A stretch of DNA of 64,000 bases, from NCBI GenBank assembly GCA_964499205.1, contig CAZCJX010000006.1:2533-66532 (forward strand), in the 5' to 3' direction. The stretch comes from an uncultured Actinomycetes bacterium. Its GTDB lineage: Bacteria > Chloroflexota > Dormibacteria > Aeolococcales > Aeolococcaceae. Under the pieces are notes generated by a model that was not told the DNA's origin, did no database searches, and was given only the letters and a program-made list of their open reading frames with translations. Position numbers and translations under genes: made by a program. The first letter of the stretch is position 1. Each line of letters opens with the position of its first letter. Below are positions 35,003-52,149 of the stretch, piece after piece.

Positions 35003-35584
35003 ATGTGCGGACTGCTCGTGATCGGCGCCGGCATGTCGGTCTCCGGTTGCTCGGATCTGACTCCCCTCTCGATCCGCTTCGTCACCAACGCGCCGCCCGC
35101 GCCGGCGCGTGTGACCAGCGGTGACTACGTGCTCTCCGGTGGAGTCAACGCACACCTCGCCGACCAGGCCGGCTTCTGCGGCAACGTCTCCTCGTCGGGC
35201 GGCCAGCAGCTGTTCCTCGCCGTTCTGCTGGCGGATGACGGCGTGACCCAGTCGTTCGTCCGCCTGTCGGTGCGGCCAGCGCAGGCCTCCACCGGGACAC
35301 CCGCCCACACCGGGACATTCGACCTGTCCCGCGCCGGCCTCGTCGTGCAGCTGGGAGTGAACCCGGCGACGCTCTCCCAGGGCCTCGATCCCAAGGCGCG
35401 GACGTTCCGGGCCAGCTCCCTCCGCGTCACCGTCTCGCCGGACTCCGCGGGCAGCGTCACCGCGGTTCTGCAGGAGGTCAAGGTGGGCGCGTCCTCCACG
35501 GGCTCGACCACCCTGCAGCCGGTGAGCGGGGCGCCGACGGTCAACCTCAAGGGACGGTTCCAGTGCGTCGCGCCGGCGTCCTGA
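35003..35584 (+). CDS. Hypothetical lipoprotein
   Basis: Lipobox VSGC. True start may be ATG 34989 with a 1-nt deletion (see findings). Confidence 0.6.
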   Translation: MCGLLVIGAGMSVSGCSDLTPLSIRFVTNAPPAPARVTSGDYVLSGGVNAHLADQAGFCGNVSSSGGQQLFLAVLLADDGVTQSFVRLSVRPAQASTGTPAHTGTFDLSRAGLVVQLGVNPATLSQGLDPKARTFRASSLRVTVSPDSAGSVTAVLQEVKVGASSTGSTTLQPVSGAPTVNLKGRFQCVAPAS

Positions 35585-35934
35585 TCGGCGTGACCACCGC
35601 GCTCCTGACCCTTGCCGCCTGCGGCGAACCGGCGGAGACCAACGCGCCCATCCACCTGTCGGGCGCGCTCAACGGCGTCTACCACCCCGGCCCCCCGGCC
35701 AGCTGTGGCACCGGCACGACGACGGTGCTGGGCCAGTACGGCCCCAACAGCACACGCGACGTGGGCACCATGACCGTCTCGGACGACGGTTCGGTGTCGT
35801 TCGACGTGTGGAAGGGCCCCTCGTTCTTCGGGCGCGGCGTGGCATTCCGGCCCGGCCACGGTTGGGATATCGACGCCCAGCTGCACGGTCCGGCCAGTGA
35901 GACGGTGACGGCGACAGGGCACCTGCCGTGCTGA
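35563..35934 (+). CDS. Hypothetical lipoprotein
   Basis: MRRAGVLIGVTTALLTLAAC: canonical lipobox LAAC. Confidence 0.75.
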   Translation: MRRAGVLIGVTTALLTLAACGEPAETNAPIHLSGALNGVYHPGPPASCGTGTTTVLGQYGPNSTRDVGTMTVSDDGSVSFDVWKGPSFFGRGVAFRPGHGWDIDAQLHGPASETVTATGHLPC

Positions 35935-38210
35935 CGCATCCCCGCGTTCAACAGCTCGGTGCGCTGATCCTGCCGCGCCTCGAGCTGGTCGTCCTCGTCG
36001 CCGTCGCCCTCGGTGCCTTCGCACTCCCGGGCCGCGCGGTGGGGGGAAGGACCGTTCCCGTTGGGATTCTGGTCATCGCGCTCTCACAGGCGGGCAGCCT
36101 GGCGTTGCTCGCCGCCGGCCTGGTGCTCGTCTACCGCTCGAACCGCATCATCAACTTCGCGCAGGGCGCGCTCGGTGCCGCCTCCGGCTACCTCTTCTAC
36201 AACGTCGTCGTGCATCGTGAGCTGCTTCACCTGCTCGGCAACATCGGCCTGCCGGTGGGCGACAACGTGTTCACCGCTGGCTACCCGTGGCAGGTGCTCA
36301 ACTTCGTGGTCGCCGGGCTGGCCGCGCTGCTCATCGCTCTGCTGGTGGGGCTGCTCGCCTACTTCGTCGTCATCCGCTGGTTCCAGAAAGCGCCGCCACT
36401 GACGGTCACCGTGGCCACCATCGGCATGTCGTACCTGGTCACCACGCTGCTCCAGCTTCCCCAGCTCCAGGCCATCTGGCCGGCCGACAACGCGACCAGC
36501 TTCCAGATGCCGTTCGACGTCATCCTGACCGTGGGCCCGGTGACGCTGCACATGCTCGACGTCGCCGCCATCGTGATCGGACCGCTGGTTCTCGCCGGAC
36601 TTGGCCTCTACCTGCGCCGTTCGCGGATCGGCATCGCGCTGCGAGCCTCGTCGGCCAATGCGGACAGGGCGAAGACTCTGGGCATGCCGGTGGCGACGGT
36701 CACCTCGGTCGCCTGGATCCTCGCTGCCCTGCTGTCGGGCGTCGCCAGCATCCTCCTCGCCGCCTCCAGCAACAACAGCGGAACCGGCGTGGGGGGCCAG
36801 TCCGGGGCCAGCAACGGTTTTCCCGCCGACCTGCTGGTCACAGTGCTCGCCGTCGCGGTGGTGGCCCGGATGCGCAGCCTGCCGCTGGTGATGGTCGGTG
36901 CGGTCTGCCTGGCGGTCACCGAGCAGTCGCTGGTCTGGAATCTCAACTCGAGCGCTCTGTTCCAGGTGTTCCTGCTGGGGCTGATCGTCGTCTTTCTGCT
37001 GGTGCGTCGCGAGCAGCGCGGGCGGGTGGACGTCGCCGAGGAGACCTTCGCCGCGGCGCGTGAGGCTCGTCCCACCCCGCCGGTGCTGCGCGTGTTTCCC
37101 ACCGTTCGCAACCTGCGCTGGCTGCTCTGGGCGGTCGCCGCCATCACCCTGGTGCTCTTCCCGTGGGTGGCTCCGCCCGCCACCATCGAGGGTGCGACGG
37201 TGGCGATCGTCTACGCGATGATCGGCCTGTCACTCTTGGTGTTGACCGGGTGGGCCGGCCAGATCAGCCTCGGCCAGTTCGCCTTCGCGGGCATCGGCGC
37301 GTACATGGCCGCGCTGCTCGGCGGCACGGCCGGGATGCCGATGTTTCTCGCCGTCATCGTCGGCGCTGTCGCCGGCGCCCTGCTGGCGACGGTGATCGGG
37401 CTGCCGGCCCTGCGCCTGCCGGGGCTGAACCTCGCGGTGGTGACGCTGGCCGTGGCCATCGCCACGACGGCCGTGCTGCTCAACCCGAACTACCTCGGCC
37501 ACTTCCTGCCGACCAAGCTGAATCGCCCCGGGCTGCTGGGGCTCGACGGCGAAGACCCGCACGTGTACTTCTACCTGATCCTCGTCCTGCTGGCCGCCGT
37601 CGCGCTGTCGGTCATGGGCCTGCGGCGCAGCCGCCTGGCCCGCGCGCTGATCGCGTCGCGCGACAACCCCTACGCGGCGCAGTCGTTCGGAGTCAGCCTG
37701 TTCGCGGCGCGCCTCAAAGCGTTCGCCATCTCCGGTTTCATCGCCGCGCTGGCCGGCGGACTCTTCGCATACGAGCAGCACGGCGTCCACACCGAGAGCT
37801 TCACCGCCGACTCCAATCTGCTCCAGTTCCTCACCGCCGTCACCGGCGGCCTCGGCTCGGTGATCGGGCCGATGCTGGGAGCCGCAGTGGGATTCGTGCT
37901 GCCGCTGCTCAATCTGCCCGTCATTTCCACCGCGGGCATCCCGGTGCTGGCGCTGGTGCTGCTGCTGTTCTACCCGAGCGGCCTGAGCGGCATCGCCTTC
38001 GGGCTGCGCGACGTCGTGTTGCGGCGGGTGGCGACGCGTCACCGCATCGACGTGCCCAGCCTGCTGCGCGGCAGCGTCGCCGATCGCCGCCATGCACGCG
38101 CACCGCTGGCACCGCGCAAGCAGGACGCGACCCTGGCGGAGGAGGCGCCCTACCGGATCACCGCACAGTGGACCTACGCCGGCAGCGGCGCGGGTGACGG
38201 CGAGCCATGA
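35928..38210 (+). CDS. Branched-chain-type ABC permease, fused LivH+LivM
   Basis: 'GLVLVYRSNRIINFAQG', 'GIALRASSANADRAKTLG', 'LTGWAGQISLGQFAFAGIG', 'ARALIASRDNPYAAQSFG', 'GGLGSVIGPMLG'. Confidence 0.9.
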   Translation: MLTHPRVQQLGALILPRLELVVLVAVALGAFALPGRAVGGRTVPVGILVIALSQAGSLALLAAGLVLVYRSNRIINFAQGALGAASGYLFYNVVVHRELLHLLGNIGLPVGDNVFTAGYPWQVLNFVVAGLAALLIALLVGLLAYFVVIRWFQKAPPLTVTVATIGMSYLVTTLLQLPQLQAIWPADNATSFQMPFDVILTVGPVTLHMLDVAAIVIGPLVLAGLGLYLRRSRIGIALRASSANADRAKTLGMPVATVTSVAWILAALLSGVASILLAASSNNSGTGVGGQSGASNGFPADLLVTVLAVAVVARMRSLPLVMVGAVCLAVTEQSLVWNLNSSALFQVFLLGLIVVFLLVRREQRGRVDVAEETFAAAREARPTPPVLRVFPTVRNLRWLLWAVAAITLVLFPWVAPPATIEGATVAIVYAMIGLSLLVLTGWAGQISLGQFAFAGIGAYMAALLGGTAGMPMFLAVIVGAVAGALLATVIGLPALRLPGLNLAVVTLAVAIATTAVLLNPNYLGHFLPTKLNRPGLLGLDGEDPHVYFYLILVLLAAVALSVMGLRRSRLARALIASRDNPYAAQSFGVSLFAARLKAFAISGFIAALAGGLFAYEQHGVHTESFTADSNLLQFLTAVTGGLGSVIGPMLGAAVGFVLPLLNLPVISTAGIPVLALVLLLFYPSGLSGIAFGLRDVVLRRVATRHRIDVPSLLRGSVADRRHARAPLAPRKQDATLAEEAPYRITAQWTYAGSGAGDGEP

Positions 38211-41200
38211 TCGAAACGCCGCGCGTCGCCACCAGCGAGCGGCCGATGGCGCCCTCCCCGCGCGAGGTGAGCGAGGGCCATGCGCCGATCGAGTCGCAGA
38301 GACCGCGCGCCGTGCGGACCGAGGAGCGGTCGCCGGCGGTGCCGTTGAGCCGGCGCGGTGGCGACGCTGTGCGCGAGCTCGATCCTCGGAGGGTGACCGA
38401 AGGATTCAGCCCCTTTCCCATGCTCGTTTTCGGCCTCATGGGGTTCGTCGTCGCAGTGCAGGGCCAGGCGCTCGCCGTGGTGCTGCCCCAGGCGCAGGCG
38501 ATCGGCGTCAGCGCCGCCGCGCTGGGTGTCCTGGTGAGCTTCATCAACGGCGCCTTCAACATCGGCGGCGTCGGCCTCGGCTACCTGGCTGACCGCTTCC
38601 GCATCCGCGTCGTCTTTCTGCGCGCCGGCCTTGCCGTCAGGACGGTCGGTGCACTGATGATCGGCTTCGCCGCCGGCCCGGCGGCGTTCGTCACCGCCAA
38701 CCTCATCGGTGTCGCCGGCAACCTCGCCGCCCAGCCGCAGGTGAGCATCCTGCGAGACGTGTATCCCGTGGCGCAGACGCTGCGGGCGGGATTCTTCAAC
38801 GCCAAGCTGCAGCAGCTGGCCATCGTGATCGGACCCACGCTGGCGGGGGTGGTGACGGTGTGGGTGGGATGGCAGTGGATGCTCGTCCTCGTCGGCCTGC
38901 TCAGCATTCCGGTGGTCTGGATGAGCTTCCATCTCCGCGAGCCGCGGCAGGGCGGCGTCGACGCGCCGGAGAGCGCGGACACGGAGGGCCAGCCGCCGAT
39001 CAGCTTCGGCCACGCCCTGGCCATGCTGTGGTCGATCAGGACGATGCGGCTCATCCTCCTGGCCTATCCCTTCCTGGCCATCGCCGCCATCGTCGTCCCG
39101 TTCTCCGGGATCTACTTCGCGGCGCAGTGGCAGCTGGGGCCTGTCACCCGTGGCCTGGCGATCTCCTCGGCGGGCGCGGTGTCCGTCGTCGGACTGATCG
39201 TCTTCACGCCCCTGATCCGCTCCTTCAGCGAGTACAAGCAGGGAAGGCTCCTGAGCATGTCGGCGCTGCTGCTCGTCTGGCAGGCGCTGTGTGCGATCGG
39301 CATGGTGGTGGCGCCGAGCCTGCCCCTGGCCCTCGCCGCGTTCTGGGGCGTGGCCCTGGTGTACGCGATCGTCGCCCAGACCGTGGCGAGCCTGGTGCAG
39401 GCGATCGTCCCCGCTCGCATCCGCACGCTGGGCGTGGAATCGCTGAGCTTCATGGCCATCGTGGTCCCGCTGTATCTCCTGGTGGCTCCCACCGTGATGA
39501 CCGCGCTCTTCGGCGCCATCGGCATCACCGTCACGCCCGGAGTTAAAAGCGTCGCAGGCTATGTGCCTGCGATGCTGATCGGCGCCTTCTTCGTCGCCCG
39601 TGCCGCTCGCATGGTCGAGCCCGACATTCGCAGCGCGATCTCGGTCACCATCGCCGAGGCGGTGGTCGGCGAAGCCCGCGCGCAAGGCCGCAACACGCTT
39701 CTCGTGTGCCGCGGCCTCGAGGTCGAGGTGGGAGGCGCGCAGATTCTGTTCGGTGTCGACCTCGACGTCGAGGACGGCGAGGTGGTGGCCCTGCTCGGCA
39801 CCAACGGAGCCGGCAAGTCGACGCTGCTGCGCGCCATCTCGGGTGTGCACCACGCCTCGTCGGGCGGCATCTTCTACGACGGGGAGGACATCACCCACGC
39901 TCCGCCGCACGCCAACGCGCGCCGCGGGATCGTGATGCTGCCCGGCGGCCACGCTGTGTTCCCGGAGATGACGGTGGCCGACAACCTTCGTGCCGCCGCC
40001 TGGATCGACCGCAGCGACGCCCGGGAGGTCCAGCAGCGCGTCGACGATGTGCTCTCCCGCTTCCCGCAGCTGCGCGAGCGGCTGTCGGTCATGGCCGGCT
40101 CGATGTCGGGTGGCGAGCAGCAGATGCTCGCCGTGTCCCAGGCGTTGCTGATGCGACCGCGGCTGCTGATGATCGACGAGCTGTCGCTGGGACTCGCGCC
40201 GCGCGTGGTGGAGCAGCTGCTCGGCATCGTCCGGGAGATCAACGCGGACGGCACCACCGTGATCCTCGTCGAGCAGTCGGTGAACGTCGCCCTGGAGATC
40301 GCGTCGCGCGTGGTGTTCATGGACCACGGCGAGGTGCGCTACGACGGACCGGCGGACCGCATCCACGAGCACCGCGAGATCTTCCGCGCCGTGTTCCTCA
40401 CCGGCGGTGCTGAGGTCAGTCGCGGGCCGCGGGCGCGGACCGACCTCTCAGCCGGCGACGAGACGGCCCTGAGCGTCCGGGACCTGCGCGCCACCTTCGG
40501 CGGTGTGACCGCGCTCGACGGCGTGTCGCTCGACGTCCGCGCGGGGGAGATCGTCGGCTTGGTCGGCCCCAACGGCGCGGGCAAGACGACGCTGTTCGAC
40601 GCCATCTCCGGTTTCGTGGCGGTGCGCTCCGGCACCGTGTCGCTGCTCGACCACGACGTCACGGCGAGCCGCCCCGAGGTGCGCGCGCAGCTCGGCCTCG
40701 GGCGCTCATTCCAGAACGTGCGCCTCTTCCCCGCCTTGACGGTGCGGGAGAACCTCACCGTCGCGCTCGACCGGGCGGGCGGGTCGCGGAGCAGCCTCGC
40801 CGCCGCGTTCTGGCTGCCCACCCATGGCAGCAGCGAACGGCGCGCGCAGCGCCGCGTCGAGAGCCTGATCGAGACGCTGGGCTTGCAGCGCTACGCCGAG
40901 AGCTTCATCGGCGAGCTGTCGACGGGGACGCGACGGATCGTCGACTTCGGCTGCATCATCGCCAGCGGACCGCGGGTGCTGCTGCTCGACGAGCCGTCGA
41001 GTGGGCTCGCGCAGGCGGAGGTGGAGGAGCTCGGTCCGCTGGTGTCGCGCATCGCGCGCGACCTGAGATGTGCCGTGCTCATCACCGAGCACGACCTCGG
41101 TCTGGTGGCGTCGATCGCCGCGCGACTCGTGGTGATGGAGCTGGGACATGTCTTTGCCGAGGGCGAGCCCTCCGCTGTCCTCGGCGATCCGGCCGTCCAG

Positions 41201-41329
41201 GCCTTGCTGGCAGGCGGAACCAGCACCGGCCTGCACCGGTCGGGCGGGCGTCGAGCCCTCGAGCCTCTGCTGGGTTCGAACGGCAAGGGTCGAGTGGAGA
41301 CAGCGACGCTGAGAGAAGTCGATCGATGA
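38207..41329 (+). CDS. MFS-like domain fused to two ABC ATPase domains (LivF-type then LivG-type)
   Basis: Multi-TM MFS-like N-half (GYLADRFR loop motif); NBD1 GTNGAGKS/MSGGEQQ/LMIDE/VEQ; NBD2 GPNGAGKT/LSTG/LLLDE/TEHD. Confidence 0.85.
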   Translation: MIETPRVATSERPMAPSPREVSEGHAPIESQRPRAVRTEERSPAVPLSRRGGDAVRELDPRRVTEGFSPFPMLVFGLMGFVVAVQGQALAVVLPQAQAIGVSAAALGVLVSFINGAFNIGGVGLGYLADRFRIRVVFLRAGLAVRTVGALMIGFAAGPAAFVTANLIGVAGNLAAQPQVSILRDVYPVAQTLRAGFFNAKLQQLAIVIGPTLAGVVTVWVGWQWMLVLVGLLSIPVVWMSFHLREPRQGGVDAPESADTEGQPPISFGHALAMLWSIRTMRLILLAYPFLAIAAIVVPFSGIYFAAQWQLGPVTRGLAISSAGAVSVVGLIVFTPLIRSFSEYKQGRLLSMSALLLVWQALCAIGMVVAPSLPLALAAFWGVALVYAIVAQTVASLVQAIVPARIRTLGVESLSFMAIVVPLYLLVAPTVMTALFGAIGITVTPGVKSVAGYVPAMLIGAFFVARAARMVEPDIRSAISVTIAEAVVGEARAQGRNTLLVCRGLEVEVGGAQILFGVDLDVEDGEVVALLGTNGAGKSTLLRAISGVHHASSGGIFYDGEDITHAPPHANARRGIVMLPGGHAVFPEMTVADNLRAAAWIDRSDAREVQQRVDDVLSRFPQLRERLSVMAGSMSGGEQQMLAVSQALLMRPRLLMIDELSLGLAPRVVEQLLGIVREINADGTTVILVEQSVNVALEIASRVVFMDHGEVRYDGPADRIHEHREIFRAVFLTGGAEVSRGPRARTDLSAGDETALSVRDLRATFGGVTALDGVSLDVRAGEIVGLVGPNGAGKTTLFDAISGFVAVRSGTVSLLDHDVTASRPEVRAQLGLGRSFQNVRLFPALTVRENLTVALDRAGGSRSSLAAAFWLPTHGSSERRAQRRVESLIETLGLQRYAESFIGELSTGTRRIVDFGCIIASGPRVLLLDEPSSGLAQAEVEELGPLVSRIARDLRCAVLITEHDLGLVASIAARLVVMELGHVFAEGEPSAVLGDPAVQALLAGGTSTGLHRSGGRRALEPLLGSNGKGRVETATLREVDR

Positions 41330-42360
41330 GCAGGAGTGACGAGATGGATGCGGTGATGACGACCAGGGAGACCACCGGTTCCCAGCCGGCCACGGCCAAG
41401 GCCCGGCCGCCGATGAACCGCGCCGTCTTCCAGGAGACGTTTCAGCTGATCGCCGACAACATCGGCCGGGTCATCAAGGGCAAGGACAGCGTGGTCCGCA
41501 TGGTGCTCGTCGCCGTGCTCGCCGAGGGGCACGTGCTCCTCGAGGACCTGCCCGGCACCGGCAAGACCATGCTGGCGCGGTCCCTGGCGGCGACGCTGAA
41601 CCTGCGCGACAACCGCATCCAGTGCACCCCCGACCTGCTGCCGTCCGACGTCACCGGCGCGCCGGTGCTCGACATGAACACCCACCAGTTCGTCTTCCGC
41701 AACGGGCCGGTCTTCTCCAACGTCCTCCTCGTCGACGAGATCAACCGAGCCACGCCGAAGACGCAGTCGGCGCTGCTCGAGGCGATGCAGGAGAAGAACG
41801 TGACGGTGGACGGCGTCACCTACCCCCTGCCGAAACCGTTCCTGATGATCGCCACCCAGAACCCCATCGAGCTGGCTGGCACCTTCCCCCTTCCTGAAGC
41901 GCAGCTCGACCGCTTCATGTTCAAGCTGTCGGTGGGCTACCCGGATCGCCTCCACGAGGTGGAGGTGATGGACACCAACGTCAAACGGGCCGCCATCCTC
42001 GACCTCACCCCCGCCGTCGACGCCGACACGCTCGACTCGATGATCGCGTGGGCCAAGGACGTCGAGGTGTCGGAGGCGGTGAAGCTGTACATCGTCGACC
42101 TCGTCCAGGCGACGCGCAGCGACCCCTCGCTCCAGATGGGTGCGAGCAGCCGCGCCAGCATCGGCATCAACCGTGCGGCGCGCGTGCTCGCCGCCTCCAA
42201 CGGCCGCGAGGACGTCTACGTCGACGACGTCAAGCAGGTGGCCATCCCCACCCTGGCGCACCGCGTGCTGCTGACGCCGGACGCGGTGCTGCGCGACGAG
42301 ACCGTCGAGTCGGTGATCGAGCGGATCATCGGGCGGATCAAGCCGCCCATGGGCGGGTAG
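41326..42360 (+). CDS. moxR: MoxR family AAA+ ATPase
   Basis: GHVLLEDLPGTGKT, RIQCTPDLLPSDVTG, VDEINRATPKTQSALLEAM, ATQNPIE..GTFPLPEAQLDRF. Confidence 0.95.
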   Translation: MSRSDEMDAVMTTRETTGSQPATAKARPPMNRAVFQETFQLIADNIGRVIKGKDSVVRMVLVAVLAEGHVLLEDLPGTGKTMLARSLAATLNLRDNRIQCTPDLLPSDVTGAPVLDMNTHQFVFRNGPVFSNVLLVDEINRATPKTQSALLEAMQEKNVTVDGVTYPLPKPFLMIATQNPIELAGTFPLPEAQLDRFMFKLSVGYPDRLHEVEVMDTNVKRAAILDLTPAVDADTLDSMIAWAKDVEVSEAVKLYIVDLVQATRSDPSLQMGASSRASIGINRAARVLAASNGREDVYVDDVKQVAIPTLAHRVLLTPDAVLRDETVESVIERIIGRIKPPMGG

Positions 42361-42372
42361 AGACAGCTCCCC

Positions 42373-43668
42373 ATGAGCGTGGGTGCCGCGTCGCCGACTC
42401 CGTCTGCCACCGCGCCGCGGGCGCGTGGCGGCAAGGTGACCAACCCCAGAGCTCTTCACGTTCGCATCGAGGAGCTCACGGGAGTGCGCACGGGAGGATT
42501 CATTCTCCTGGCGTTCTTCTTCGTGGGCTGGGGGCTGGGCTACGTCTTCGGCGGCCGCGGGCTGTACCTCCTCGCCTATGGCGCGGTGATCATGTTCGTC
42601 GTCGCGGTGGCGCTCTCGCGACGCAGACGGCCGCTCAGCGCCGAGCGCACCAAGTTGCCGCGACGGGTGCGCGAGGGCCAGACCGTCGCCGTCGAGATCA
42701 CCCTCACCGCCAAGCAGCGGCTCTCCATGTTCGGGATCGTCGAGGACCTGCACGAGCAGCTCGGCGAAGCCGTGCGGCTGTCGATCGACAAGGTGAGCCC
42801 CAACGAGCCGTGGACCTACCGCTACACGATCCGGCCGCGGCTGCGCGGCGTCTTCTCGGTGGGTCCGCTGGTCGCGGTCTGGTCCGATCCACTGGGCCTG
42901 GCGCGCTCCAAGCAGGAGCTGCTGCCGCGCACCCAGATCCTCGTCCACCCGACGGTGAGCGAGGTGCTCGACCGTCCGCTGACGCGCCAGCTGGAGGACC
43001 CGCCGATCCGGCCGCCCAAGACCAAGCCGTGGCCCGCCGGGTTCGAGTTCTACGGCATGCGCGACTACGTCGCCGGCGACGACCTGCGCCGTGTCGTCTG
43101 GAAGGCGGTCGCGCGCACCGGCCGCATGCTGGTGCGCGAGTCCGAGCAGGGCGTCACCGACCAGGTGAACATCCTCCTCGACACCGACCCGGACTGGCAT
43201 CAGCGCGGCGAACCCAGCCCCACCTTCGAGACGGCCGTCAAGGCCGCGGCCGCGGTGGCGGACGCGCACTTCAAGAACGGCTTCTCGGTGAGCCTGTTCA
43301 GCAGCGAGAAGGTGCTCGCCGACACGCTGCGAGGTCCCAACGCCCGCCTGCTCCTTCTCGACGAGCTCGCCCGCGTCGGCCGTGGCAAGAAGCCGCTCGC
43401 CAAGGGTGTCGAGCTGCTGGTCGGGCGGGCGGGACGCACCGCCCACAACGTGATCATCACGCCGTACTTCGACGGCCAGGCGGCGGCGAGGACCGCGCTG
43501 CTCACCGCGCGCGGCGCCTCCGTCCGCGTGGTGCTGATCCGCTGGGAGGAGAGCGACCAGGGAAGCGTGCACCGAGCCACCGAGGTGGGCGCGGAGGTCA
43601 CCACCGTGGTCGCCGGCGGTGCGCTCACCGCTGCCTTCGCCCACGCTGTCGGAGCCGGTCGGCGATGA
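42373..43668 (+). CDS. DUF58 domain-containing membrane protein
   Basis: Two N-terminal TMs; RLRGVF.VGP, 'EFYGMRDYVAGDDLRRVVWKAVARTGRMLVRE'. Confidence 0.9.
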   Translation: MSVGAASPTPSATAPRARGGKVTNPRALHVRIEELTGVRTGGFILLAFFFVGWGLGYVFGGRGLYLLAYGAVIMFVVAVALSRRRRPLSAERTKLPRRVREGQTVAVEITLTAKQRLSMFGIVEDLHEQLGEAVRLSIDKVSPNEPWTYRYTIRPRLRGVFSVGPLVAVWSDPLGLARSKQELLPRTQILVHPTVSEVLDRPLTRQLEDPPIRPPKTKPWPAGFEFYGMRDYVAGDDLRRVVWKAVARTGRMLVRESEQGVTDQVNILLDTDPDWHQRGEPSPTFETAVKAAAAVADAHFKNGFSVSLFSSEKVLADTLRGPNARLLLLDELARVGRGKKPLAKGVELLVGRAGRTAHNVIITPYFDGQAAARTALLTARGASVRVVLIRWEESDQGSVHRATEVGAEVTTVVAGGALTAAFAHAVGAGRR

Positions 43669-46487
43669 CAACGGTCGCCGAGCCCGAAGTTCTTCAGGGC
43701 GTTCCAGCCGATCCACCCTCGCCGCAGCGGGCGCCTGGTCCGGAGCCGGTCGATGGCGCCGAGCAGCGTCCCCAGGTGCTGTCCCTCGCCGGCGCCGCGT
43801 TCTGCTCGTCGGTCGCCGCCATGCTGCTGGTGGGTGGGCTGTTCCAGGGCGTGCTGCCCCGGCTGATCGCCGTCGTCGTGCCCGCCGTCGGCGTGGGGTT
43901 GGTGGCCTACGGCATCAGGAGTCGGCGACTGTGGCCGCAGCTCGCCGCCATCCCGGTCGGTGCGGTCCTCGGCGCTGTGCTGGTCGTGCCCGAGACCAAC
44001 GGCCAGGGAAGCTCCAACATCGTCGACGCCGTCCTCTCCGCGATTCGCGGCGGCGGCCTTCTCCAGCCGCCGGTGTCGTTCGACCCCGGCTGGAGGTTCA
44101 TCGTCACCCTCATCGCCTGCGGGCTGGGCGCCGGCACGCTTGCCGGCGCAGCCGCGTTCGCCAAGCCGCGCCTCGCCGTGGTCATCCCCGTCCCACTGGC
44201 GATGCTCGCCGAGTTCGTCCAGCCGAAGTCCACCGAGGTGATCGGCACCGCGGTTGCCGCGGTGCTCATCGTCGGCGCGCTGGGTTTCTCCTATGGCGCG
44301 GAGCTGCAGGCGGAAGGCGCGGTGCGCACGGGCTCCTTCGAGCTCCGCCGCATGGCGCGCACCGGGAGCCTGGCGGTCGGCCTGCTGGTCGCCATCCTCG
44401 CGCTGGGCCAGACGTCGTTCCTCTTCCCGCAGCCCAACCGGAACGACGTCACGCCACCGCAGAAGCCGCATGCGGCGCCACCGCAGGCGGATCGTGCGCT
44501 GTTCACCTACCAGGTGCAGAACGGCAACAAGATCCCCTTCCGCATCGGCACCATCGACATCTACGACCCCAAGCAGAATGCCTGGCTGCTGCCGCCCTAC
44601 GACACCAATCGGCTGCACGACATCAGCAACGGCCAGGTGCCCGGCGGTCCCCCCGCAAAGGGCAGCACGTACACCGTCACGGTGACGATCGCCGACGCCC
44701 AGGGCCATGTGCTTCCCGCCGTCTACGGCACCGCCAGGATCAGCGGGCTGTCCGCGCCGATCAAGATCGATCCGCGCACCGGCATCCTCCAGCTGTCCGA
44801 CCGCCCGGTCGGCAGGGGGATGACCTACCAGCTCAAGGTGGCCGCGCCCCCCACCGGGCAGGCCCTGGCCACGGCGGGCAAGCCGGAGGCGGCCTACGCG
44901 CAGTTCCTGCAGGTGCCGACGCCGCCCCTGGCGGTGCAAGACCTGTTGAGCAAGGCGCCCGCCGACCCCTTCGACCGGATGCAGTACCTGCGCAACGCGC
45001 TGCTCACCAAGGTGGTCGCCAGCGGCGCGGGCACGCCGGTCGACCTGCCCGTCTCACGCGTACCCCAGATGCTCAAGGGCGCGCAGGCGTCACCCTACGA
45101 GATCACCGCGGCGGAAGCCCTGCTGGCTCGATGGGCGGGCGTGCCCTCGCGGATCGGCTACGGCTACTACGACGGGCCCGCACTGAAGAACGGCGCCCAC
45201 GAGATGCGGCCGAAGAACGGGGCCACCTGGCTGGAGGCGTACTTCAAGGGATACGGCTGGGTGCCGGTGGTGGGCGTGCCCCAGCAGGCGAAGAGCAGCG
45301 CCGACAACAACGACAAGAATCGCAACGACCTGATCAGGCCCGCGTCCGAGCTCAGCGTGGTGATCTACGTTGCCACCCGGGACACGTCGCCGCTGCTCTA
45401 CTTCCAGATCGTCGGCTATTACCTCGGCCTCGTGCTGCCGTGGGTGGTACTCGCGGTGCTGCTGCTGATCGCCCATCCGGCGCTGGTCAAGGTGGTGCGC
45501 TTCGTGGCGCGACGCCGATGGGCCGCGAAACGAGGACCAGCGGCGCGCATCCTCGTCGCCTACACGGAGTTCCGCGACCTTGCCAACGACCTCACCTACG
45601 GCGACCCCACCGCGACGCCGCTGGAATACCTGAACTATGTCCAGGACGACGTCGAGCACGCCGATCTCGCCTGGCTGGTGACCCGCGCGATGTGGGGTGA
45701 CATGCGCAGGGACCTCACCGAGGAGGACGCCGCGCACGCTGAGGCGCTGAGCCGATCGCTGATCAGGCGGCTGGCGCGCGCGCAGAACGTCGTCAACCTG
45801 GTCTCGGCGGCGATCGCCCGGACATCACTGCGGCAACCCTTCTCCGATGCGCCACCGCGCATGTGGCCACGCCGTCGCAGCACTGCTCGCCCGGGGATTC
45901 GCGCGCGGCTGCGCAGCCTCCGCCGCAAGACCTGGCGTGCGCGCGTCGCTGGACTCCTGGGCTTGTTCCTGCTCGCCGGGTGTGGCGGTGACAGCCAGTT
46001 TCGCGGACCACACACGCTGCGCAGCGGCCTGACGCCGGCCTCGATCGGCGACCTCAGCCTGGTCCGCAACGCCAGGCTGGAGCGGCAGTACCTCACCGCG
46101 GCGTCGTCGAAGGTGGTGACCCAGGGAGAGGTCTGGCTGGTGCACGAGGGCGATGTCATCCAGGGATCGGTGCAGATCTCGCTGCTCGCCCCCGACGTGC
46201 GTGCCGACGATCCCTCGGTGCGCGCCGGGCTGGACGACGGCATCGGCGGTGTCGCGTTCACGCCCGTGCTCATCACCAGCGACCAGCTGGTGTGGGTCAA
46301 GCAGGAGGTGAACCAGCGCGTCTACCTGTGGTTCCCGCCGCGCAGCAACGCCATCGAGCTGGTGATCCTGCGTCTCCAGTTCAAGAACAGCCTGAGCCTG
46401 GTCAAAGGCCTGGTCGACTACCAGCACGGACGCAAGCCGCAGGGGGCGTCGCCGTCGCCCTCGGCGAGCACAGGAGCGAGCGGATGA
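43665..46487 (+). CDS. Multi-TM transglutaminase-like (TgpA-type) protein lacking the catalytic triad, with lipoprotein-like C-terminal module
   Basis: 'LLARWAGVPSRIGYGY', 'TWLEAYFKGYGWVP' match the TGase core; ATGA-coupled to DUF58. Confidence 0.8.
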   Translation: MTTVAEPEVLQGVPADPPSPQRAPGPEPVDGAEQRPQVLSLAGAAFCSSVAAMLLVGGLFQGVLPRLIAVVVPAVGVGLVAYGIRSRRLWPQLAAIPVGAVLGAVLVVPETNGQGSSNIVDAVLSAIRGGGLLQPPVSFDPGWRFIVTLIACGLGAGTLAGAAAFAKPRLAVVIPVPLAMLAEFVQPKSTEVIGTAVAAVLIVGALGFSYGAELQAEGAVRTGSFELRRMARTGSLAVGLLVAILALGQTSFLFPQPNRNDVTPPQKPHAAPPQADRALFTYQVQNGNKIPFRIGTIDIYDPKQNAWLLPPYDTNRLHDISNGQVPGGPPAKGSTYTVTVTIADAQGHVLPAVYGTARISGLSAPIKIDPRTGILQLSDRPVGRGMTYQLKVAAPPTGQALATAGKPEAAYAQFLQVPTPPLAVQDLLSKAPADPFDRMQYLRNALLTKVVASGAGTPVDLPVSRVPQMLKGAQASPYEITAAEALLARWAGVPSRIGYGYYDGPALKNGAHEMRPKNGATWLEAYFKGYGWVPVVGVPQQAKSSADNNDKNRNDLIRPASELSVVIYVATRDTSPLLYFQIVGYYLGLVLPWVVLAVLLLIAHPALVKVVRFVARRRWAAKRGPAARILVAYTEFRDLANDLTYGDPTATPLEYLNYVQDDVEHADLAWLVTRAMWGDMRRDLTEEDAAHAEALSRSLIRRLARAQNVVNLVSAAIARTSLRQPFSDAPPRMWPRRRSTARPGIRARLRSLRRKTWRARVAGLLGLFLLAGCGGDSQFRGPHTLRSGLTPASIGDLSLVRNARLERQYLTAASSKVVTQGEVWLVHEGDVIQGSVQISLLAPDVRADDPSVRAGLDDGIGGVAFTPVLITSDQLVWVKQEVNQRVYLWFPPRSNAIELVILRLQFKNSLSLVKGLVDYQHGRKPQGASPSPSASTGASG

Positions 46488-47554
46488 GAGAGATGAGCGC
46501 GATTCGCCGGGTGGCCGTCGCCGGCGCGCTGGTCAGCCTGTGCGGCTGCGGCCTCAAGCCTCCGCAGCAGTTCGGTGCCCACCCCTACCCGCAGGACGTG
46601 CAGCTGGGTGCGCAGACGTCGCCGACGTCGGTCCCGGCACCGCTGGCCAAGGGCGCCAACATCGAGCCCGGCACGCCGGGCTTCCTGGTGCCGCCGATCC
46701 CCTCGGCGCCGAGCACCTTCACGCCCTTCGCCTTCGCACCGCCCACGCCGCACCCCTGCCCGACGGCCGACCCGCTGGCGCCGCTCAGCGACCAGGCGGC
46801 CGCCGACGTGCAGGCGGCGCCGAAGCCTGGCGTCTACCACTACCGTCAGTCCGGCAGCTATGCGCTGAAGGGCAAGCCCGCGGTGGCCTACCCGCCGAGC
46901 GTCGACATCACCATCGGCCAGTCCTACGTCGGACGCATCGTCGCCCAGGGCCAGCACGACCCCACCGACACGTCGATCTACTGGGACCAGACGGAGAAGT
47001 CGATCGCCCCCAACGGGTGGGTGGACGCCACTATCACGTACACGTTCCGCCTGTCGCACACCAAGGGAACTCCGCCGCTCTCCCAGGACAGCGGTGAGAT
47101 CGACATCTACGCGGTCACCGTGCAGACCGCGAATGGCACCGACACCTTCCAGCCACAGGGTCCCGACCCCGCACCGATCGTGCTGCTGCCGGCAACCGGT
47201 CAGCCGTCGTGGAACGACCAGTCGGTCGACGGTCTGCACCAGGAGACGTTCGACGACGCTGCCGGCTACCACGGCGAGAAGGACCACGTCGATGCCTGCG
47301 GCAAGCTCATCGACGCCTACCGGATCGACCTCGGTCCGCTGGAGCCGGCCACCGGCACCGGGACACCGACCAAGACGCAATCCAGCTTCCACTACGAGAC
47401 CAACAGCACTCTCGACTACAACATCGACGGGTGGTACGACATCGCCACCCAGGACGGTGGACTCGTGGTCGCCGAGCACATCACGGAGACGGCGATCGAC
47501 GGGAGCTGGACCAATGACCGCACCCTGACCATCAACTCGGTGCAGCCCGGCTGA
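46484..47554 (+). CDS. Hypothetical lipoprotein
   Basis: ATGA overlap; IRRVAVAGALVSLCGC lipobox; Pro-rich linker, then a beta-rich domain. Confidence 0.75.
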   Translation: MREMSAIRRVAVAGALVSLCGCGLKPPQQFGAHPYPQDVQLGAQTSPTSVPAPLAKGANIEPGTPGFLVPPIPSAPSTFTPFAFAPPTPHPCPTADPLAPLSDQAAADVQAAPKPGVYHYRQSGSYALKGKPAVAYPPSVDITIGQSYVGRIVAQGQHDPTDTSIYWDQTEKSIAPNGWVDATITYTFRLSHTKGTPPLSQDSGEIDIYAVTVQTANGTDTFQPQGPDPAPIVLLPATGQPSWNDQSVDGLHQETFDDAAGYHGEKDHVDACGKLIDAYRIDLGPLEPATGTGTPTKTQSSFHYETNSTLDYNIDGWYDIATQDGGLVVAEHITETAIDGSWTNDRTLTINSVQPG

Positions 47555-48807
47555 TGCGCTGGCTGAGTCGCATGGCGATGGTCCTGCTGGGCAGCACGCT
47601 GCTCTCGGGTTGCGGCGCTGCCTTCGAACTGCCGCAGGGACCGGACGCGAACAAGCACCTGGTGGCGAGGATCCTCGTCGACCTGCCGCCGGAGCTCCGT
47701 CCCGCGGCGCAGCTGGCCATCGACGACATCAACCGGCTCCATCCCAGCGAGTTCGAGCAGACCACCGTCGTGGCCGTCTACGCCGACGACACCTTCGAGG
47801 GACAGATCGACACGGGCACGGCCAAGACACACCTGCACGACCGCCTCGACGACGGCACCATCCTCGGCATGGTCGGCCCGTACAACCTGCAGCTGGCGCG
47901 CGCGCTGCTGCCGATCGCCAACCAAGCGGATCTTCCCGTGTTCAGCCCCACGCTCACCGACGAGTGCCTCACCCAGCAGGAGAGCTTCTGCACTCGCGGC
48001 GAGCCCAACTCGCTGCGTCCGCACAACGCCAGGGCCGGGCAGCCGGGTGACCTCACCTTCTTCCGCGTGCCACCGGTGCAGGGCAGGCAGGCCAAGGCGG
48101 CAGCGGACTATGCCTCGGGGGCGCTGGCGAAGAGCAACGCCTTCCTGGTCGTCGACAACACTCCGGTGGCAACGCGGATGGCCGACGACTTCACCGCGCA
48201 ATGGCAGCTCCAGGGTGACACGATCGCCGGCAGAGCCTCCGTCGACACCGCCGCCAGCCCGGACCTCAACCTCCTGGCGGGGCAGATCCAGGCGGCCAAG
48301 CCTGACGTCGTCTACCTGGCCACCACGGATGAGCCCGCCGTCGCCCACCTCGGCGGGTTGCTCAGCGGCCACGGGTCGCTGCCGCTGATCGTGCCGGACG
48401 CGCTGCACACCACGCAGATGGCCGAGGCCGCGCAGAGCTGGACCGGAGCGCAGCTGCTGGTCACGTCTCTGAGCGGCGATCCGTCGCTGGTCTCCGCCGA
48501 ATTCGAGCACGAGTGGGCGGGGCTGCATCGCGGCGATGCCCCGCCCTACGCGCTGGAGACGTGGCTGGCGACGAACGCACTCATCCAAGCCATCCGGACC
48601 GGCAGCCAGGTCCTCGTGGAGCAGCAGGTGACGGCCATTCCAAGCCGGGACGTGGTCGACGCCGCGGTGCCCACCATCCAGGTGCCAACCGACGACCTCA
48701 ACGGTCTGCATTTCGACAGCCATGGCGACAACGGGAGTCAAATCGTGACGATCTTCACTGCCAGCAAGGGACGCTGGACGTCCCCCGCCGAACAGCAGGC
48801 GGCGTGA
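47554..48807 (+). CDS. Branched-chain-type ABC substrate-binding lipoprotein
   Basis: LLSGC lipobox; 'AAQLAIDDIN', 'LGMVGPYN', 'TFFRV', 'KPDVVYLA'. Confidence 0.85.
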   Translation: MRWLSRMAMVLLGSTLLSGCGAAFELPQGPDANKHLVARILVDLPPELRPAAQLAIDDINRLHPSEFEQTTVVAVYADDTFEGQIDTGTAKTHLHDRLDDGTILGMVGPYNLQLARALLPIANQADLPVFSPTLTDECLTQQESFCTRGEPNSLRPHNARAGQPGDLTFFRVPPVQGRQAKAAADYASGALAKSNAFLVVDNTPVATRMADDFTAQWQLQGDTIAGRASVDTAASPDLNLLAGQIQAAKPDVVYLATTDEPAVAHLGGLLSGHGSLPLIVPDALHTTQMAEAAQSWTGAQLLVTSLSGDPSLVSAEFEHEWAGLHRGDAPPYALETWLATNALIQAIRTGSQVLVEQQVTAIPSRDVVDAAVPTIQVPTDDLNGLHFDSHGDNGSQIVTIFTASKGRWTSPAEQQAA

Positions 48808-51344
48808 CCGTGGCAGCACCGAGCGAGCGCAGGCTGAGCCTCGACGGGAACGACTGGCAGGTGCTGGGTCTGGTTCCCGGCTTCCGGAGATGGCACCGCA
48901 TCGGCGCGGCGGAGGAGATCCAGGCACCGTCGATCACCGGCTGGATCCCCGCCACCGTTCCCGGTCACGTGGTCGCGGACGTGGTGGCAGCCGGCATGGC
49001 CCCCGACCCGTACACCGCCCTCAACAGCCTTGCCGCGGAATGGATCGCGCAGCGGGAGTGGGTCTACCGCCGCAGCTTCACCGTGCCCGCCGGCTTCCGC
49101 CGCGAGCGCGTCGTTCTCCACTTCGAGGGCGTCGACGACGCCTGCAAGGTCTTCCTCAACGGGTGCGAGCTCGGCAGTCACGAAGGGATGAACCGCGCCT
49201 TCGAGTTCGACGTGTCCGAGCACCTTCGCGACGGCGAGAACGTCGTCTCGGTCGCGCTGGAACAGGCGCCGTTCGAGCCGGACATCCAGGCGCAGCTCGG
49301 CAACACGCGCGACGTGCGCACGTGGAAGGTGCGGTTCACCTACTGGTGGGACTTCTCCACGCGCCTGGTGAGCACCGGCATCTGGGACAGCGTCTGGCTG
49401 GAGGCGCGTTCGGAGGCGTCGCTGCGCGATCTGTGGACCCGGACCGAGCGCACCGGCGACGGCTGGCAGCTCGAGGTGCTGGGCAACGTCGACGGCAACG
49501 GCGGCGACCTCGAGCTGGCCGTGGAGCTGAAGGACGGCGACCGTGTTGTTGCGCAGAGCCAGACGCGGGTCAGCACCGGCCCGGTGCGCCTTGCGATGCC
49601 TGCGCCGGGCGTCGATGTTTGGAACGTCAACGGATGCGGCGAGCAGCGCCTCTACCGCGCCGCGGTCGAGCTGCGCCGCCGCTCCGGCGAGGTGCTGCAC
49701 ACCGCCGCACTCCCGGTGGGCTTCCGAACCATCGAGTTCGAGCGCACGCCGGGGGCCGGCGAGGACGCGCTGCCGTACCGGGTGGTGGTGAACGGCCGTC
49801 GGATCTTCATCCGCGGATGGAACTGGGTTCCCGTCGACCAGCTGTACGGTGTCCTCCGTCCCGAGCGCTACCGCAACCTCATCGACCACGCCAAGGCCGC
49901 GGGCTGCAACCTGCTGCGGGTGTGGGGTGGTGGCCACCTCGAACGAGAGCTCTTCTACGACCTGTGCGATGAGGCGGGAATCCTGGTCTGGCAGGAGTTC
50001 ATCCAGTCGTCGTCGGGCGAGGACTCGCAGCCTGCGACCGACGCCGAATACCTCGAGTACATCGCGGCGCAGGCGGAGGCCATGGTGACGCGCCGGCGCA
50101 TGCACCCCTCGCTGGCGATCTGGTGCGGCGGCAACGAGCTCGCCGTCCATCCCGAGCGGACGCCGCTGTCGACGTCGCATCCGGCGGTGGGGGTGCTGCG
50201 CGACGTCGTGGCGCGGTTGGACCCGGATCGGCTCTTCCTGCCCACCTCGCCGTCGGGCCCGCGCTTCGATCTGATGAAGGAGGGCGGCGTCCCCGGCCAC
50301 GACGTGCATGGCCCCTGGCACTTCACCGGCGACGGCGAGTACCACCGTTTCCACGACCGCAGCGAGCCGATGCTCTACTCCGAGTTTGGCGCGGTGGGCA
50401 CCTCCGACCTCGACGCGCTGGAGCGGTACATGCCGGGCGCGCATTGGCCGCCGGACTGGACCAACCGGACGTGGGTTCACCACACGGGCTACTGGTGGAT
50501 CGACATTCGCGACGTGGAGCCGCTCTTCGGTCCGCTCCGCGAGCCGATCGAGTACGTCCGCGCCGGACAGTGGGTGCAGGCACACGCCCTGGCCTACGCC
50601 ATCGAGGCGCAGCGGCGCCGCGAGGACCATTGCGCCGGTGTCATCCCCTGGCAGCTCAACGAACCCTGGCCGAACGGTGCGCAGACGAACGCCGTGCAGT
50701 ACGGCGGCCGTGCCAAGCCGGCGTACTGGGCGGTGGCCCGGGCGTACGCGCCGCTGCTCATCTCCGCAGCGTTCCGGGGCATCAGGTGGGAGCCCGGTGA
50801 GGAGTTCACCGCGGCCGTGTGGGGCTCGGGTGCAGTGCCGGCGGGATGCACCGCACGCTGGACCATCACCGATGTCGGTGACGGAAGCGTGCGTCACGAG
50901 CAGGCGGTCACCATCGAGGGCGGCACCGGCCTGGCACAGCGGGTCGGAGCGTGCACGTGGACCATCCCGCAGGAGCCGACCCTGTGGGCCCTCGACCTTC
51001 ACATCGAGGACGGTGATGGCGGAGTCGTCGCCTCCAACCAGTACCTCTTCTCGAGCTTCGCCGAACCGCCGCTGGCGCCACTGCTGCGGTGCAGGCCGGG
51101 GCGCCTGTCGGCGGTCAGGGACGCCAGCGGAGACCTGCACGTCTCCGCGGAGGGCGCGCCGATCATCGGCGTGCGCGTGTACGCGACCGACGGCAGGCCC
51201 GGCCCCGGGGTCGGCGCCGGCTGGATCGCCGCGCTGTTCCCGGGGCGGCCGGTATCCGTGGGACAGCGACCCGGCAGGGAGATCTGCGTATCGGCGTGGA
51301 ATGCACCGGACATCGCCCTCGCACCGAGACCAGAAGGAGACTGA
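48804..51344 (+). CDS. GH2 beta-mannosidase-like glycosidase
   Basis: 'WIPATVPG', 'FEGVD', 'RGWNWVPVD', 'LRVWGGG', 'YDLCDEAGILVWQEF', 'WCGGNE' (acid/base), 'SEFG' (nucleophile), 'WQLNEPWP'. Confidence 0.9.
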   Translation: MTVAAPSERRLSLDGNDWQVLGLVPGFRRWHRIGAAEEIQAPSITGWIPATVPGHVVADVVAAGMAPDPYTALNSLAAEWIAQREWVYRRSFTVPAGFRRERVVLHFEGVDDACKVFLNGCELGSHEGMNRAFEFDVSEHLRDGENVVSVALEQAPFEPDIQAQLGNTRDVRTWKVRFTYWWDFSTRLVSTGIWDSVWLEARSEASLRDLWTRTERTGDGWQLEVLGNVDGNGGDLELAVELKDGDRVVAQSQTRVSTGPVRLAMPAPGVDVWNVNGCGEQRLYRAAVELRRRSGEVLHTAALPVGFRTIEFERTPGAGEDALPYRVVVNGRRIFIRGWNWVPVDQLYGVLRPERYRNLIDHAKAAGCNLLRVWGGGHLERELFYDLCDEAGILVWQEFIQSSSGEDSQPATDAEYLEYIAAQAEAMVTRRRMHPSLAIWCGGNELAVHPERTPLSTSHPAVGVLRDVVARLDPDRLFLPTSPSGPRFDLMKEGGVPGHDVHGPWHFTGDGEYHRFHDRSEPMLYSEFGAVGTSDLDALERYMPGAHWPPDWTNRTWVHHTGYWWIDIRDVEPLFGPLREPIEYVRAGQWVQAHALAYAIEAQRRREDHCAGVIPWQLNEPWPNGAQTNAVQYGGRAKPAYWAVARAYAPLLISAAFRGIRWEPGEEFTAAVWGSGAVPAGCTARWTITDVGDGSVRHEQAVTIEGGTGLAQRVGACTWTIPQEPTLWALDLHIEDGDGGVVASNQYLFSSFAEPPLAPLLRCRPGRLSAVRDASGDLHVSAEGAPIIGVRVYATDGRPGPGVGAGWIAALFPGRPVSVGQRPGREICVSAWNAPDIALAPRPEGD

Positions 51345-51345
51345 G

Positions 51346-52149
51346 TTGAAGCCGATGCCCACCGACAGCTTGGTGGTGGAGCTGGACCCGGACCAGATCG
51401 CCTTCTTCAAAGAGAACGGGTACTTGCAGATCGAGCGCATCACCACCGATGCGGAGATCGAATGGTTGCGCGACGTGTACGACGAGCTCTTCGTCCGCAA
51501 GGAGGGCCAGTACTGGGACCTCGCCGGCAAGATGGGGCACAAGGGGGAGAGCGACCTGCCACAGATCGTCGGCCCGGAGGAGACCTATCCGCAGCTGCTG
51601 GAGACGGTGTACGTGCGCAACACACGCCGTGTGGCCCGGCAGCTGCTCGGGGTGGGCGACGACGTAGAGCTCGACGTCTTCGGTCATATGATCCTCAAGC
51701 CACCGCGTCACGGCGCAGAGACGCCGTGGCACCAGGACGAGGCGTACTGGCCGGCGGGCTACCGCTACGAGGGCCTGTCGGTGTGGATGCCGCTCGACGA
51801 CGCGACCGTCGAGAACGGGTGCATGCAGTTCGTCCCCGGCACGCACAACCACCGGGTTGTGCAGCATCGCCACATCAATGACGATCCCACCGTGCACGGC
51901 CTCGTCACCGACCAGGTGCAGCCCGAGGGCGCCGTCGCATGCCCCATCCCAGCCGGAGCGGCGACGGTCCACCACTGCCGCATGCTGCACTACGCAGGTC
52001 CCAACCGAACGGGCAGCCCGCGCCGCGTCTACATCCAGAGCTTCACCGCGCCGGTCGAGAAGCTCGAGGGCGTCGAGGAGCGGCCGTGGCTGGTGGAGCA
52101 CGAGGTTGCCGTCGCGGAGCAGAGGTCGCGTGAAACGGGAGGGGGTTGA
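51346..52149 (+). CDS. PhyH family Fe(II)/2OG dioxygenase, copy 2
   Basis: TTG 51346 after AAGGAG; 'TPWHQDEAYW', 'WMPLDDAT.ENGCMQFVPG', 'HHCRMLHYAGPN...RR'. Confidence 0.88.
   Translation: MKPMPTDSLVVELDPDQIAFFKENGYLQIERITTDAEIEWLRDVYDELFVRKEGQYWDLAGKMGHKGESDLPQIVGPEETYPQLLETVYVRNTRRVARQLLGVGDDVELDVFGHMILKPPRHGAETPWHQDEAYWPAGYRYEGLSVWMPLDDATVENGCMQFVPGTHNHRVVQHRHINDDPTVHGLVTDQVQPEGAVACPIPAGAATVHHCRMLHYAGPNRTGSPRRVYIQSFTAPVEKLEGVEERPWLVEHEVAVAEQRSRETGGG

Follow-up and report, generated by a model that had tools for sequence, protein, structure and literature searches.

A TgpA-type membrane protein without a transglutaminase catalytic triad, encoded with MoxR, DUF58 and a Liv-type ABC importer

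The DNA analyzed here is a stretch of 64,000 nucleotides (hereafter the window; G+C content 70%) from an uncultured Actinomycetes bacterium placed by GTDB in the Chloroflexota (Dormibacteria, Aeolococcales, Aeolococcaceae), and corresponds to positions 2,533 to 66,532 of contig CAZCJX010000006.1 in assembly GCA_964499205.1. The source is a fragmented 3.7-Mb metagenome-assembled genome (MAG), 83% complete and distributed over 368 contigs. We focus on a forward-strand gene at 43665–46487, identified by its open reading frame (ORF), Pfam matches, AlphaFold2 modelling and Foldseek searches. Its 940-residue product, called pseudo-TgpA below, is a TgpA-type membrane protein with an apparently dead transglutaminase core. 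The gene is the seventh of nine co-directional genes that overlap or nearly abut, and MoxR and DUF58 genes, the partners expected in the operon of a TgpA-type protein, lie directly upstream; its ATG at 43665 overlaps the stop codon of the DUF58 gene (ATGA). The reading frame is part of a long open frame (42048–46487), and the peptides quoted in a preliminary description of this DNA, made from the sequence, lie within it (GAQASPYEI from 45078, VPVVGV up to 45278). The first frame listed at the locus, 43619–45700, was rejected, its translation being Arg-rich nonsense.

The transglutaminase-like core occupies residues 396–545 (44850–45299). The preliminary description had proposed an alignment to Pfam PF01841 (Transglut_core), and this family matches residues 431–535 with 35.6 bits against a curated cut-off of 23 (E 1.2e-8), which by sequence places pseudo-TgpA in the transglutaminase-like superfamily. 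The match to TgpA_N (PF11992, DUF3488) spans profile positions 3–329 of 333 and scores 25.3 bits against a cut-off of 30; precomputed annotation assigns PF11992 to pseudo-TgpA and to most of its relatives. A profile of the family matches the TgpA chain 6g49 at E 6e-4. Nothing relevant was found when the pseudo-TgpA core was searched as a single protein against PDB chains, TgpA being reached by the family profile only, and NCBIfam holds no model for pseudo-TgpA, the DUF58 protein or the lipoprotein encoded downstream.

The AlphaFold2 model of pseudo-TgpA, built with 101 sequences, has a pLDDT of 87.7 and a pTM of 0.74. Helices at residues 38–248 form an N-terminal transmembrane (TM) bundle of about seven helices (43776–44408), and strands at residues 280–393 form an extracytoplasmic beta-sandwich (residues 280–395; 44502–44849). 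The core comprises helix 477–490 and strands 495–501, 519–527 and 531–535, and is followed by a long helix (576–623), a helical domain that extends to residue 723, a further helix (743–770) and an alpha/beta domain (797–920). The best PDB match of the model in Foldseek was the periplasmic domain of TgpA (6g49; E 7.5e-10, target TM-score 0.65) over 272 columns that include the beta-sandwich, and the next matches were two transglutaminase-like putative proteases; the outer domain of pseudo-TgpA has the TgpA-type fold. A nearly invariant motif, GGLLQPPVSFDPGWRF (residues 130–145; 44052–44099), is found in the bundle, on the outer loop that connects TM3 with TM4. TM8 (residues 576–600) and a putatively cytoplasmic helical domain (601–725), together encoded at 45390–45839, take the place of DUF4129 in TgpA proteins; the DUF4129 label that this architecture leads one to expect was dropped, since PF13559 is not detectable in pseudo-TgpA, and many relatives of the canonical paralogue carry it. 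Since Arg-rich stretches follow TM2, TM6 and TM8 and precede TM9, the positive-inside rule suggests a topology in which the N-terminus and the helical domain 601–725 are inside, and the transglutaminase-like and C-terminal domains are outside.

Triad positions were set by alignment to an intact paralogue of the same genome (GYCQYYA...DAHVWVEAYF...GWVAFEPT). This canonical protein, encoded on contig C5, reads ... DAHVWVEAYFPTYGWVAFEPT, and pseudo-TgpA aligned to it reads ASPYEITAAEALLARWAGVPSRIGYGY ... NGATWLEAYFKGYGWVPVVGV. The position of the nucleophile Cys is taken by Ser476-Pro477 (45090–45095), at the N-terminus of helix 477–490. Ala520 (45222–45224) replaces the catalytic His, aligning with the His of DAHAWVE in TgpA (6g49) and of DAHVWVE in the paralogue, and Val536 (45270–45272) takes the place of the catalytic Asp/Glu. 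At the Cys site the alignment can be read in two registers, one residue apart, because the helix of pseudo-TgpA is one residue longer than that of the paralogue: the R..G.P.R motif points to Pro477 and the preceding Leu-Leu to Ser476, neither of which is Cys. When the family profile is compared with TgpA 6g49, the family's 'GatwLE' falls on 'AHAWVE' of TgpA, with Ala on His. In the predicted model the former Cys site lies at a helix N-terminus, and the former His and Asp sites lie on or just past successive strands (519–527 and 531–535), as in papain-like folds. The scaffold around these sites is retained (R489, G492, P494, R496, G498-Y499, W522, E524, Y526 and G531-W532), and the three cysteines of the protein (47, 152 and 773) all fall elsewhere than in the outer domain. 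The preliminary description had proposed that all three triad positions are substituted while scaffold residues remain, and the paralogue alignment bears this out, as does the profile comparison with 6g49 at the His site. With S476/P477, A520 and V536 in place of the Cys, His and Asp/Glu of catalytic members of the superfamily, pseudo-TgpA is, judged on its sequence, a homologue of the transglutaminase fold and not an active member of it.

Conservation of the loss was followed in about 320 relatives, namely 120 homologues (clustered at 90% identity; the best 120, with 48–58% identity in the region), 80 loci from named genomes, and about 120 representatives of 50%-identity clusters, these being the ones that cover the core, down to 30% identity. 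A HMMER scan, exhaustive over 1.84 billion cluster representatives, returned 155 matches at E 1e-30 or better, 283 at 1e-10 and 815 at 0.001. The triad is lost in 120/120 homologues, in 80/80 loci and in the approximately 120 core-covering representatives among the matches listed; down to 30% identity, none of these relatives has Cys or His at a triad site. Column 477 is Pro in 120/121 sequences and in all 80 named-genome loci. Column 476 is S, T or N, column 520 is A, S or G and never H, and column 536 is V, I, L or T and never D or E. In contrast, Cys, His and Glu are retained in 120/120 sequences of the canonical family (the paralogue plus 119 relatives). The check that the preliminary description had asked for in orthologues thus gave a uniform result, with loss in every relative and retention in the canonical sisters. 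The outer domain (residues 250–575) is devoid of Cys in 98 of the 101 aligned members, and neither a conserved His in this domain nor a conserved replacement nucleophile was found among them.

A separate observation concerns a distant branch with 30–34% identity (P0229, P0238, P0240 and P0206), which reads 'L-(T/L/I)-D-R-P', with an Asp one residue past the canonical Asp column. Its members still have no Cys or His, and the branch may represent an intermediate state of triad loss.

Conservation is unevenly distributed along pseudo-TgpA, and its best-conserved segment is the dead active-site region itself. The core at residues 471–545 has a mean conservation of 0.74, with 30 of 75 columns at least 90% conserved, followed by the cytoplasmic helical domain (0.67; 37 of 125 columns), the TM bundle (0.58; 23 of 211), the C-terminal domain (0.50; 5 of 127) and the beta-sandwich (0.49; 15 of 116). 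This pattern argues for a retained non-catalytic function, and not for decay. Residues that are invariant or nearly so are E479, E484, R489, W490, R496, R/H515-P516, E524, W532, G537 and P539. Neutral decay, in which the domain would be the relic of a gene being lost, could draw on the patchiness of the family, since 3 of 151 genomes sampled across the phylum of the window, all from one class, carry pseudo-TgpA. It is nevertheless hardly credible, and is already contradicted by the conservation pattern: 155 cluster representatives match with E values of 1e-30 or better, the reading frames are unbroken, conservation within the protein peaks at the former active site, and invariant residues are common to Actinomycetota and Dormibacterota.

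The strict conservation around the former Cys site also bears on whether the domain could still be an enzyme, with Ser/Thr476 as nucleophile and E479, E524 or another Glu as base. Ser or Thr stands at position 476 in 111/121 homologues, E479 and E524 are almost invariant, and activity has been suggested for transglutaminase-like domains that carry a serine (PMC3495828). Position 476 is, however, Asn in 10/121 homologues (8%) and in 17/80 named-genome loci (21%), and neither the His column nor the Asp column conserves a His or any other residue that could act as general base. S/T/N-Pro-x-Glu at the beginning of a helix is a classical N-terminal helix capping box, which accounts for the conservation in structural terms; because of this pattern, and because the modelled helix begins at 477, we regard the motif at 476 as probably structural. 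Ser/Thr476 was rejected as an alternative nucleophile on these grounds (Asn in 8–21% of sequences, lack of a base, fit to the capping box), and an enzymatic role of this kind seems very unlikely.

The outer domain of pseudo-TgpA is thus, with high confidence, a non-catalytic pseudoenzyme, as the preliminary description had suggested; universal triad loss, the lack of a replacement nucleophile and the conservation of the core all speak for it. The protein has no capacity for thiol catalysis, and would be expected to give a negative result in the transglutaminase assay applied to TgpA (PMC3507681); the fold persists, as does a strictly conserved surface where the active site used to be. Transglutaminase-like domains that are inactive in other proteins are regarded as peptide-binding modules (PMC3495828), and a binding or scaffold role would be consistent with these features of pseudo-TgpA. 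The source genome encodes three Transglut_core proteins; its contig C5 carries a canonical MoxR-DUF58-TgpA operon with Cys, His and Glu intact (~5600–10300), and contig C62 carries a second pseudo-TgpA cassette, so that the dead form appears as a specialised paralogue. The closest relatives of the canonical operon are from Dormibacterota MAGs, at ~70% identity, which makes it probable that the source genome belongs to the Dormibacteria.

Pseudo-TgpA also carries a C-terminal extension. TM9 (residues 743–773; 45891–45983) resembles an internal signal peptide in sequence and in the model, with an Arg-rich start, a hydrophobic core and a lipobox (LLAGC), and leads into an extracytoplasmic alpha/beta domain (residues 796–922; 46050–46430) modelled with a pLDDT of 87.5. 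In two related loci, L068 (12164–12694) and L071 (12110–12679), the same domain is encoded by a separate lipoprotein gene behind the downstream lipoprotein gene, and we therefore regard the extension as a fused former lipoprotein. An LxxC motif is kept in 63/101 fused members, the others having AxA-like ends or plain anchors, and the fused protein might be cut in two after membrane insertion. Fold matches of the C-terminal domain (Dip2269, TiME, PknH ectodomain, DcrB, Mog1 and roadblock) were weak (best E 9e-3, TM-scores under 0.46), and the domain is not assigned to a family.

The operon around pseudo-TgpA probably begins with a small lipoprotein gene (34958–35584; 208 residues, lipobox VSGC), followed by another (35563–35934; 123 residues, lipobox LAAC) whose end overlaps the start of the permease gene. 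The permease (35928–38210; 760 residues) is a fused LivH/LivM-type protein that matches BPD_transp_2 in two stretches (E 3e-47). The following gene (38207–41329) encodes a fusion of 1040 residues that matches MFS_1 (residues 77–407) and, twice, ABC_tran; we observe in it an MFS-like domain of 10–12 TM helices and LivF-like and LivG-like ATPase domains. The MoxR AAA+ ATPase (41344–42360; 338 residues; AAA_3 at 205.8 bits, AAA_lid_2) has intact Walker A (LPGTGKT) and Walker B (LLVDE) motifs, and its start codon is preceded by GGAG. The DUF58 protein (42373–43668; 431 residues; DUF58 at E 1.3e-11, 44.6 bits) consists of two N-terminal TM helices (residues 40–84 in a TM scan) and a cytoplasmic DUF58 domain.

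Two genes follow pseudo-TgpA. The first (46484–47554), whose start overlaps the pseudo-TgpA stop, encodes a 356-residue lipoprotein of unknown fold with no Pfam match and 27% identity to a Frankiales copy (E 4e-11), and the second (47554–48807), overlapping the previous stop (TGATG), encodes a LivK-type substrate-binding lipoprotein of 417 residues (Peripla_BP_6, E 7.7e-14). The operon genes are translationally coupled, and this includes the coupling of the two small lipoprotein genes with the permease gene. A BPD_transp_2 permease, two ATPase domains and a Peripla_BP_6 binding protein identify the transporter as a Liv/HAAT-type ABC importer. It is an atypical one, with fused permeases, fused ATPases and an added MFS-like domain; other Liv-type systems of the same genome have no MFS part. 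Rfam revealed no riboswitch or other element ahead of the operon, no sigma-70-like promoter was found at it, and terminator-like sites were not above chance. Beyond the operon lie a 360-residue ORF with no Pfam match (48890–49972) and a gene (50308–52149) for a 613-residue protein with a C-terminal PhyH (phytanoyl-CoA dioxygenase) domain at residues 367–574.

Synteny was examined in the 80 loci from named genomes, where the length of flanking DNA limits gene detection. DUF58 was found near pseudo-TgpA in 73 of them, MoxR in 68, the MFS-ABC fusion in 67 and the permease in 66, which corresponds to essentially all loci with sufficient flanking DNA. The order permease, MFS-ABC, MoxR, DUF58, pseudo-TgpA is kept in 66–73/80 loci from two phyla, and recurs, followed by an unknown protein, in two gene-called metagenomic contigs; in a subgroup of loci the transporter genes are instead downstream. 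A homologue of the downstream lipoprotein occupies the same place in 25/80 loci, and the six-gene core, from the permease through this lipoprotein, recurs in Actinomycetota and Dormibacterota, often in several copies per genome. Carriers belong to the Actinomycetota (Acidimicrobiia, Frankiales, Mycobacteriales MAGs, Nitriliruptoria and the cultured Jiangella asiatica 5K138, locus L037) and to the Dormibacterota, with one MAG labelled Chloroflexota. In tblastn searches of the 80 related loci no counterparts of the LivK-type binding protein or of the two small upstream lipoproteins were found, and these three proteins are therefore placed outside the conserved core.

Outer-domain distances, compared pair by pair, correlate with the permease (r 0.74) and MFS-ABC (0.68) distances to the same degree as with those of MoxR (0.73) and DUF58 (0.74), and nearest neighbours agree in 19–21 of 36 cases, against approximately one expected by chance. 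The parts of the cassette thus co-evolve, and cassettes are inherited and duplicated as units. The source genome also contains a permease, weak-MFS and ATPase string at a contig end (C94, 5266–9836) and a MoxR fragment (C85, 1177–1725), which may together be a third cassette broken by assembly.

On balance, we favour a reading in which pseudo-TgpA is a non-catalytic adaptor that spans the membrane and serves a MoxR-DUF58 module of the co-encoded Liv-type ABC importer. Absence of the triad throughout the family, the TgpA-type fold, and the operon with its co-inheritance are established here; the topology, binding, and coupling to MoxR and to transport are what this reading would add to them. 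On the outside, the dead cleft would bind a partner with no turnover, and the beta-sandwich and the fused ex-lipoprotein domain would contribute to outer binding; candidates for this partner are a peptide-like ligand or a lipoprotein or binding protein of the operon. On the inside, DUF58 and MoxR would make contact with the conserved helical domain and use ATP in assembling, remodelling or gating the transporter complex.

Several observations weigh against the adaptor reading. DUF4129 (PF13559) has no match at E up to 1 in residues 576–745, which include the helical domain. The binding protein and the two upstream lipoproteins vary between cassettes and are not conserved, which leaves the downstream lipoprotein and the C-terminal domain as the only fixed outer partners. 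The distance correlations can arise from co-inheritance of linked genes in which there is no functional coupling. Lastly, a Ser/Thr beside the Cys site in about 80–90% of members leaves room for very unusual hydrolytic chemistry.

The variation of binding proteins among cassettes also suits another explanation, namely that the MoxR-DUF58-pseudo-TgpA trio is a self-contained envelope module that is merely genetically linked to the importer, and that its dead domain binds something unrelated to transport, for instance in the quality control or anchoring of lipoproteins or cell-wall material. MoxR-DUF58-TgpA trios with no transporter exist, namely PA2875–2873 of P. aeruginosa (PMC3507681) and, in the source genome, the canonical operon of contig C5; the other Liv-type systems of that genome do without the trio. 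Wherever flanking DNA suffices, however, essentially every locus shows the linkage to permease and MFS-ABC, in two gene orders and two phyla; the genes are translationally coupled, and whole cassettes duplicate as units. We thus consider an independent envelope module unlikely, and retain the importer-linked adaptor as the better account. A bolder extension of the latter, which we put forward tentatively and judge possible but rather doubtful, is that these cassettes encode ABC importers of an as yet undescribed class, dependent on an accessory machine that spans the membrane. The dead domain would serve on the outside as dock or receptor for lipoproteins carrying substrate, or for the ligand, and MoxR would be the motor that assembles or gates the MFS-fused transporter, working via DUF58 and the cytoplasmic helical domain. 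In cassettes with no dedicated binding protein, the dead domain and the fused ex-lipoprotein domain might replace it.

Few three-gene modules of unknown function are as widespread in prokaryotes as the MoxR-DUF58-TgpA trio, and TgpA is essential in P. aeruginosa. To our knowledge, the sole published mechanistic model assigns to the transglutaminase-like protein the proteolytic step in an ATP-dependent degradation system. TgpA (PA2873) of P. aeruginosa is encoded in an operon with PA2875 (MoxR) and PA2874 (DUF58), has intact Cys, His and Asp, and its transglutaminase activity has been measured (PMC3507681; structures 6g49 and 6g4h). Pseudo-TgpA shares with it the N-terminal TM bundle, the outer beta-sandwich and transglutaminase core, the TM helix and cytoplasmic tail that follow, and a gene position after MoxR and DUF58. 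It differs in that all three catalytic residues are replaced, in its additional TM helix and fused lipoprotein-type C-terminal domain with no DUF4129 match, and in the setting of its operon, which lies within the gene set of a Liv-type ABC importer whose ATPase is fused to an MFS-like domain.

Zhang and Aravind (2012) described MoxR-vWA-YebA/transglutaminase-like operons as membrane-proximal degradation systems, in which the transglutaminase-like domain cleaves substrates unfolded by MoxR (PMC3495828). The operon studied here has the same components, namely a MoxR AAA+ protein, a vWA/DUF58-type partner and a membrane transglutaminase-like protein; unlike in that model, the pseudo-TgpA subfamily is incapable of thiol proteolysis, and the trio here must therefore work with no cleavage by that domain. 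In the PFNA cluster of Bifidobacterium (pkb2-fn3-aaa_atp-duf58-tgm), the tgm product is presumed to be a cysteine protease (PMC8430577). This actinobacterial operon shares with that of pseudo-TgpA a MoxR-DUF58-transglutaminase-like core and extra surface proteins, but the PFNA partners are a Ser/Thr kinase and an FN3 protein, whereas those of pseudo-TgpA are ABC importer subunits and lipoproteins; Pfam scans of the operon genes other than the two small upstream lipoproteins gave no Pkinase or fn3.

Inactive proteins of the transglutaminase fold are known in eukaryotes, namely Rad4/XPC, Cyk3, erythrocyte band 4.2 and CC2D2A (PMC3495828, PMC10318531). As in pseudo-TgpA, the papain-like transglutaminase fold has outlived its catalytic residues in these proteins and is reused for binding or scaffolding; unlike pseudo-TgpA, they belong to unrelated lineages, are cytoplasmic or nuclear, and have neither MoxR-DUF58 partners nor a membrane topology. 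A survey of papain-like enzymes names these eukaryotic inactive proteins and no bacterial pseudoenzyme of TgpA type (PMC10318531), and we found no description of a pseudo-TgpA subfamily in the literature searched. What appears to be new, as far as sequences allow us to say, is a catalytically dead, domain-extended TgpA subfamily that seems hard-wired to an ABC importer. Its bearing on the known systems is that a large conserved subfamily keeps the whole trio in the absence of the triad, beside an intact paralogue, which shows that a catalytic transglutaminase domain is not required for the trio to function. Concrete candidate partners follow from its constant association with an ABC importer and lipoproteins, and at least one cultured carrier, Jiangella asiatica 5K138, makes bench testing feasible. 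Were the proposal of a distinct importer class to hold, it would give the MoxR-DUF58-TgpA trio its first concrete non-proteolytic job.

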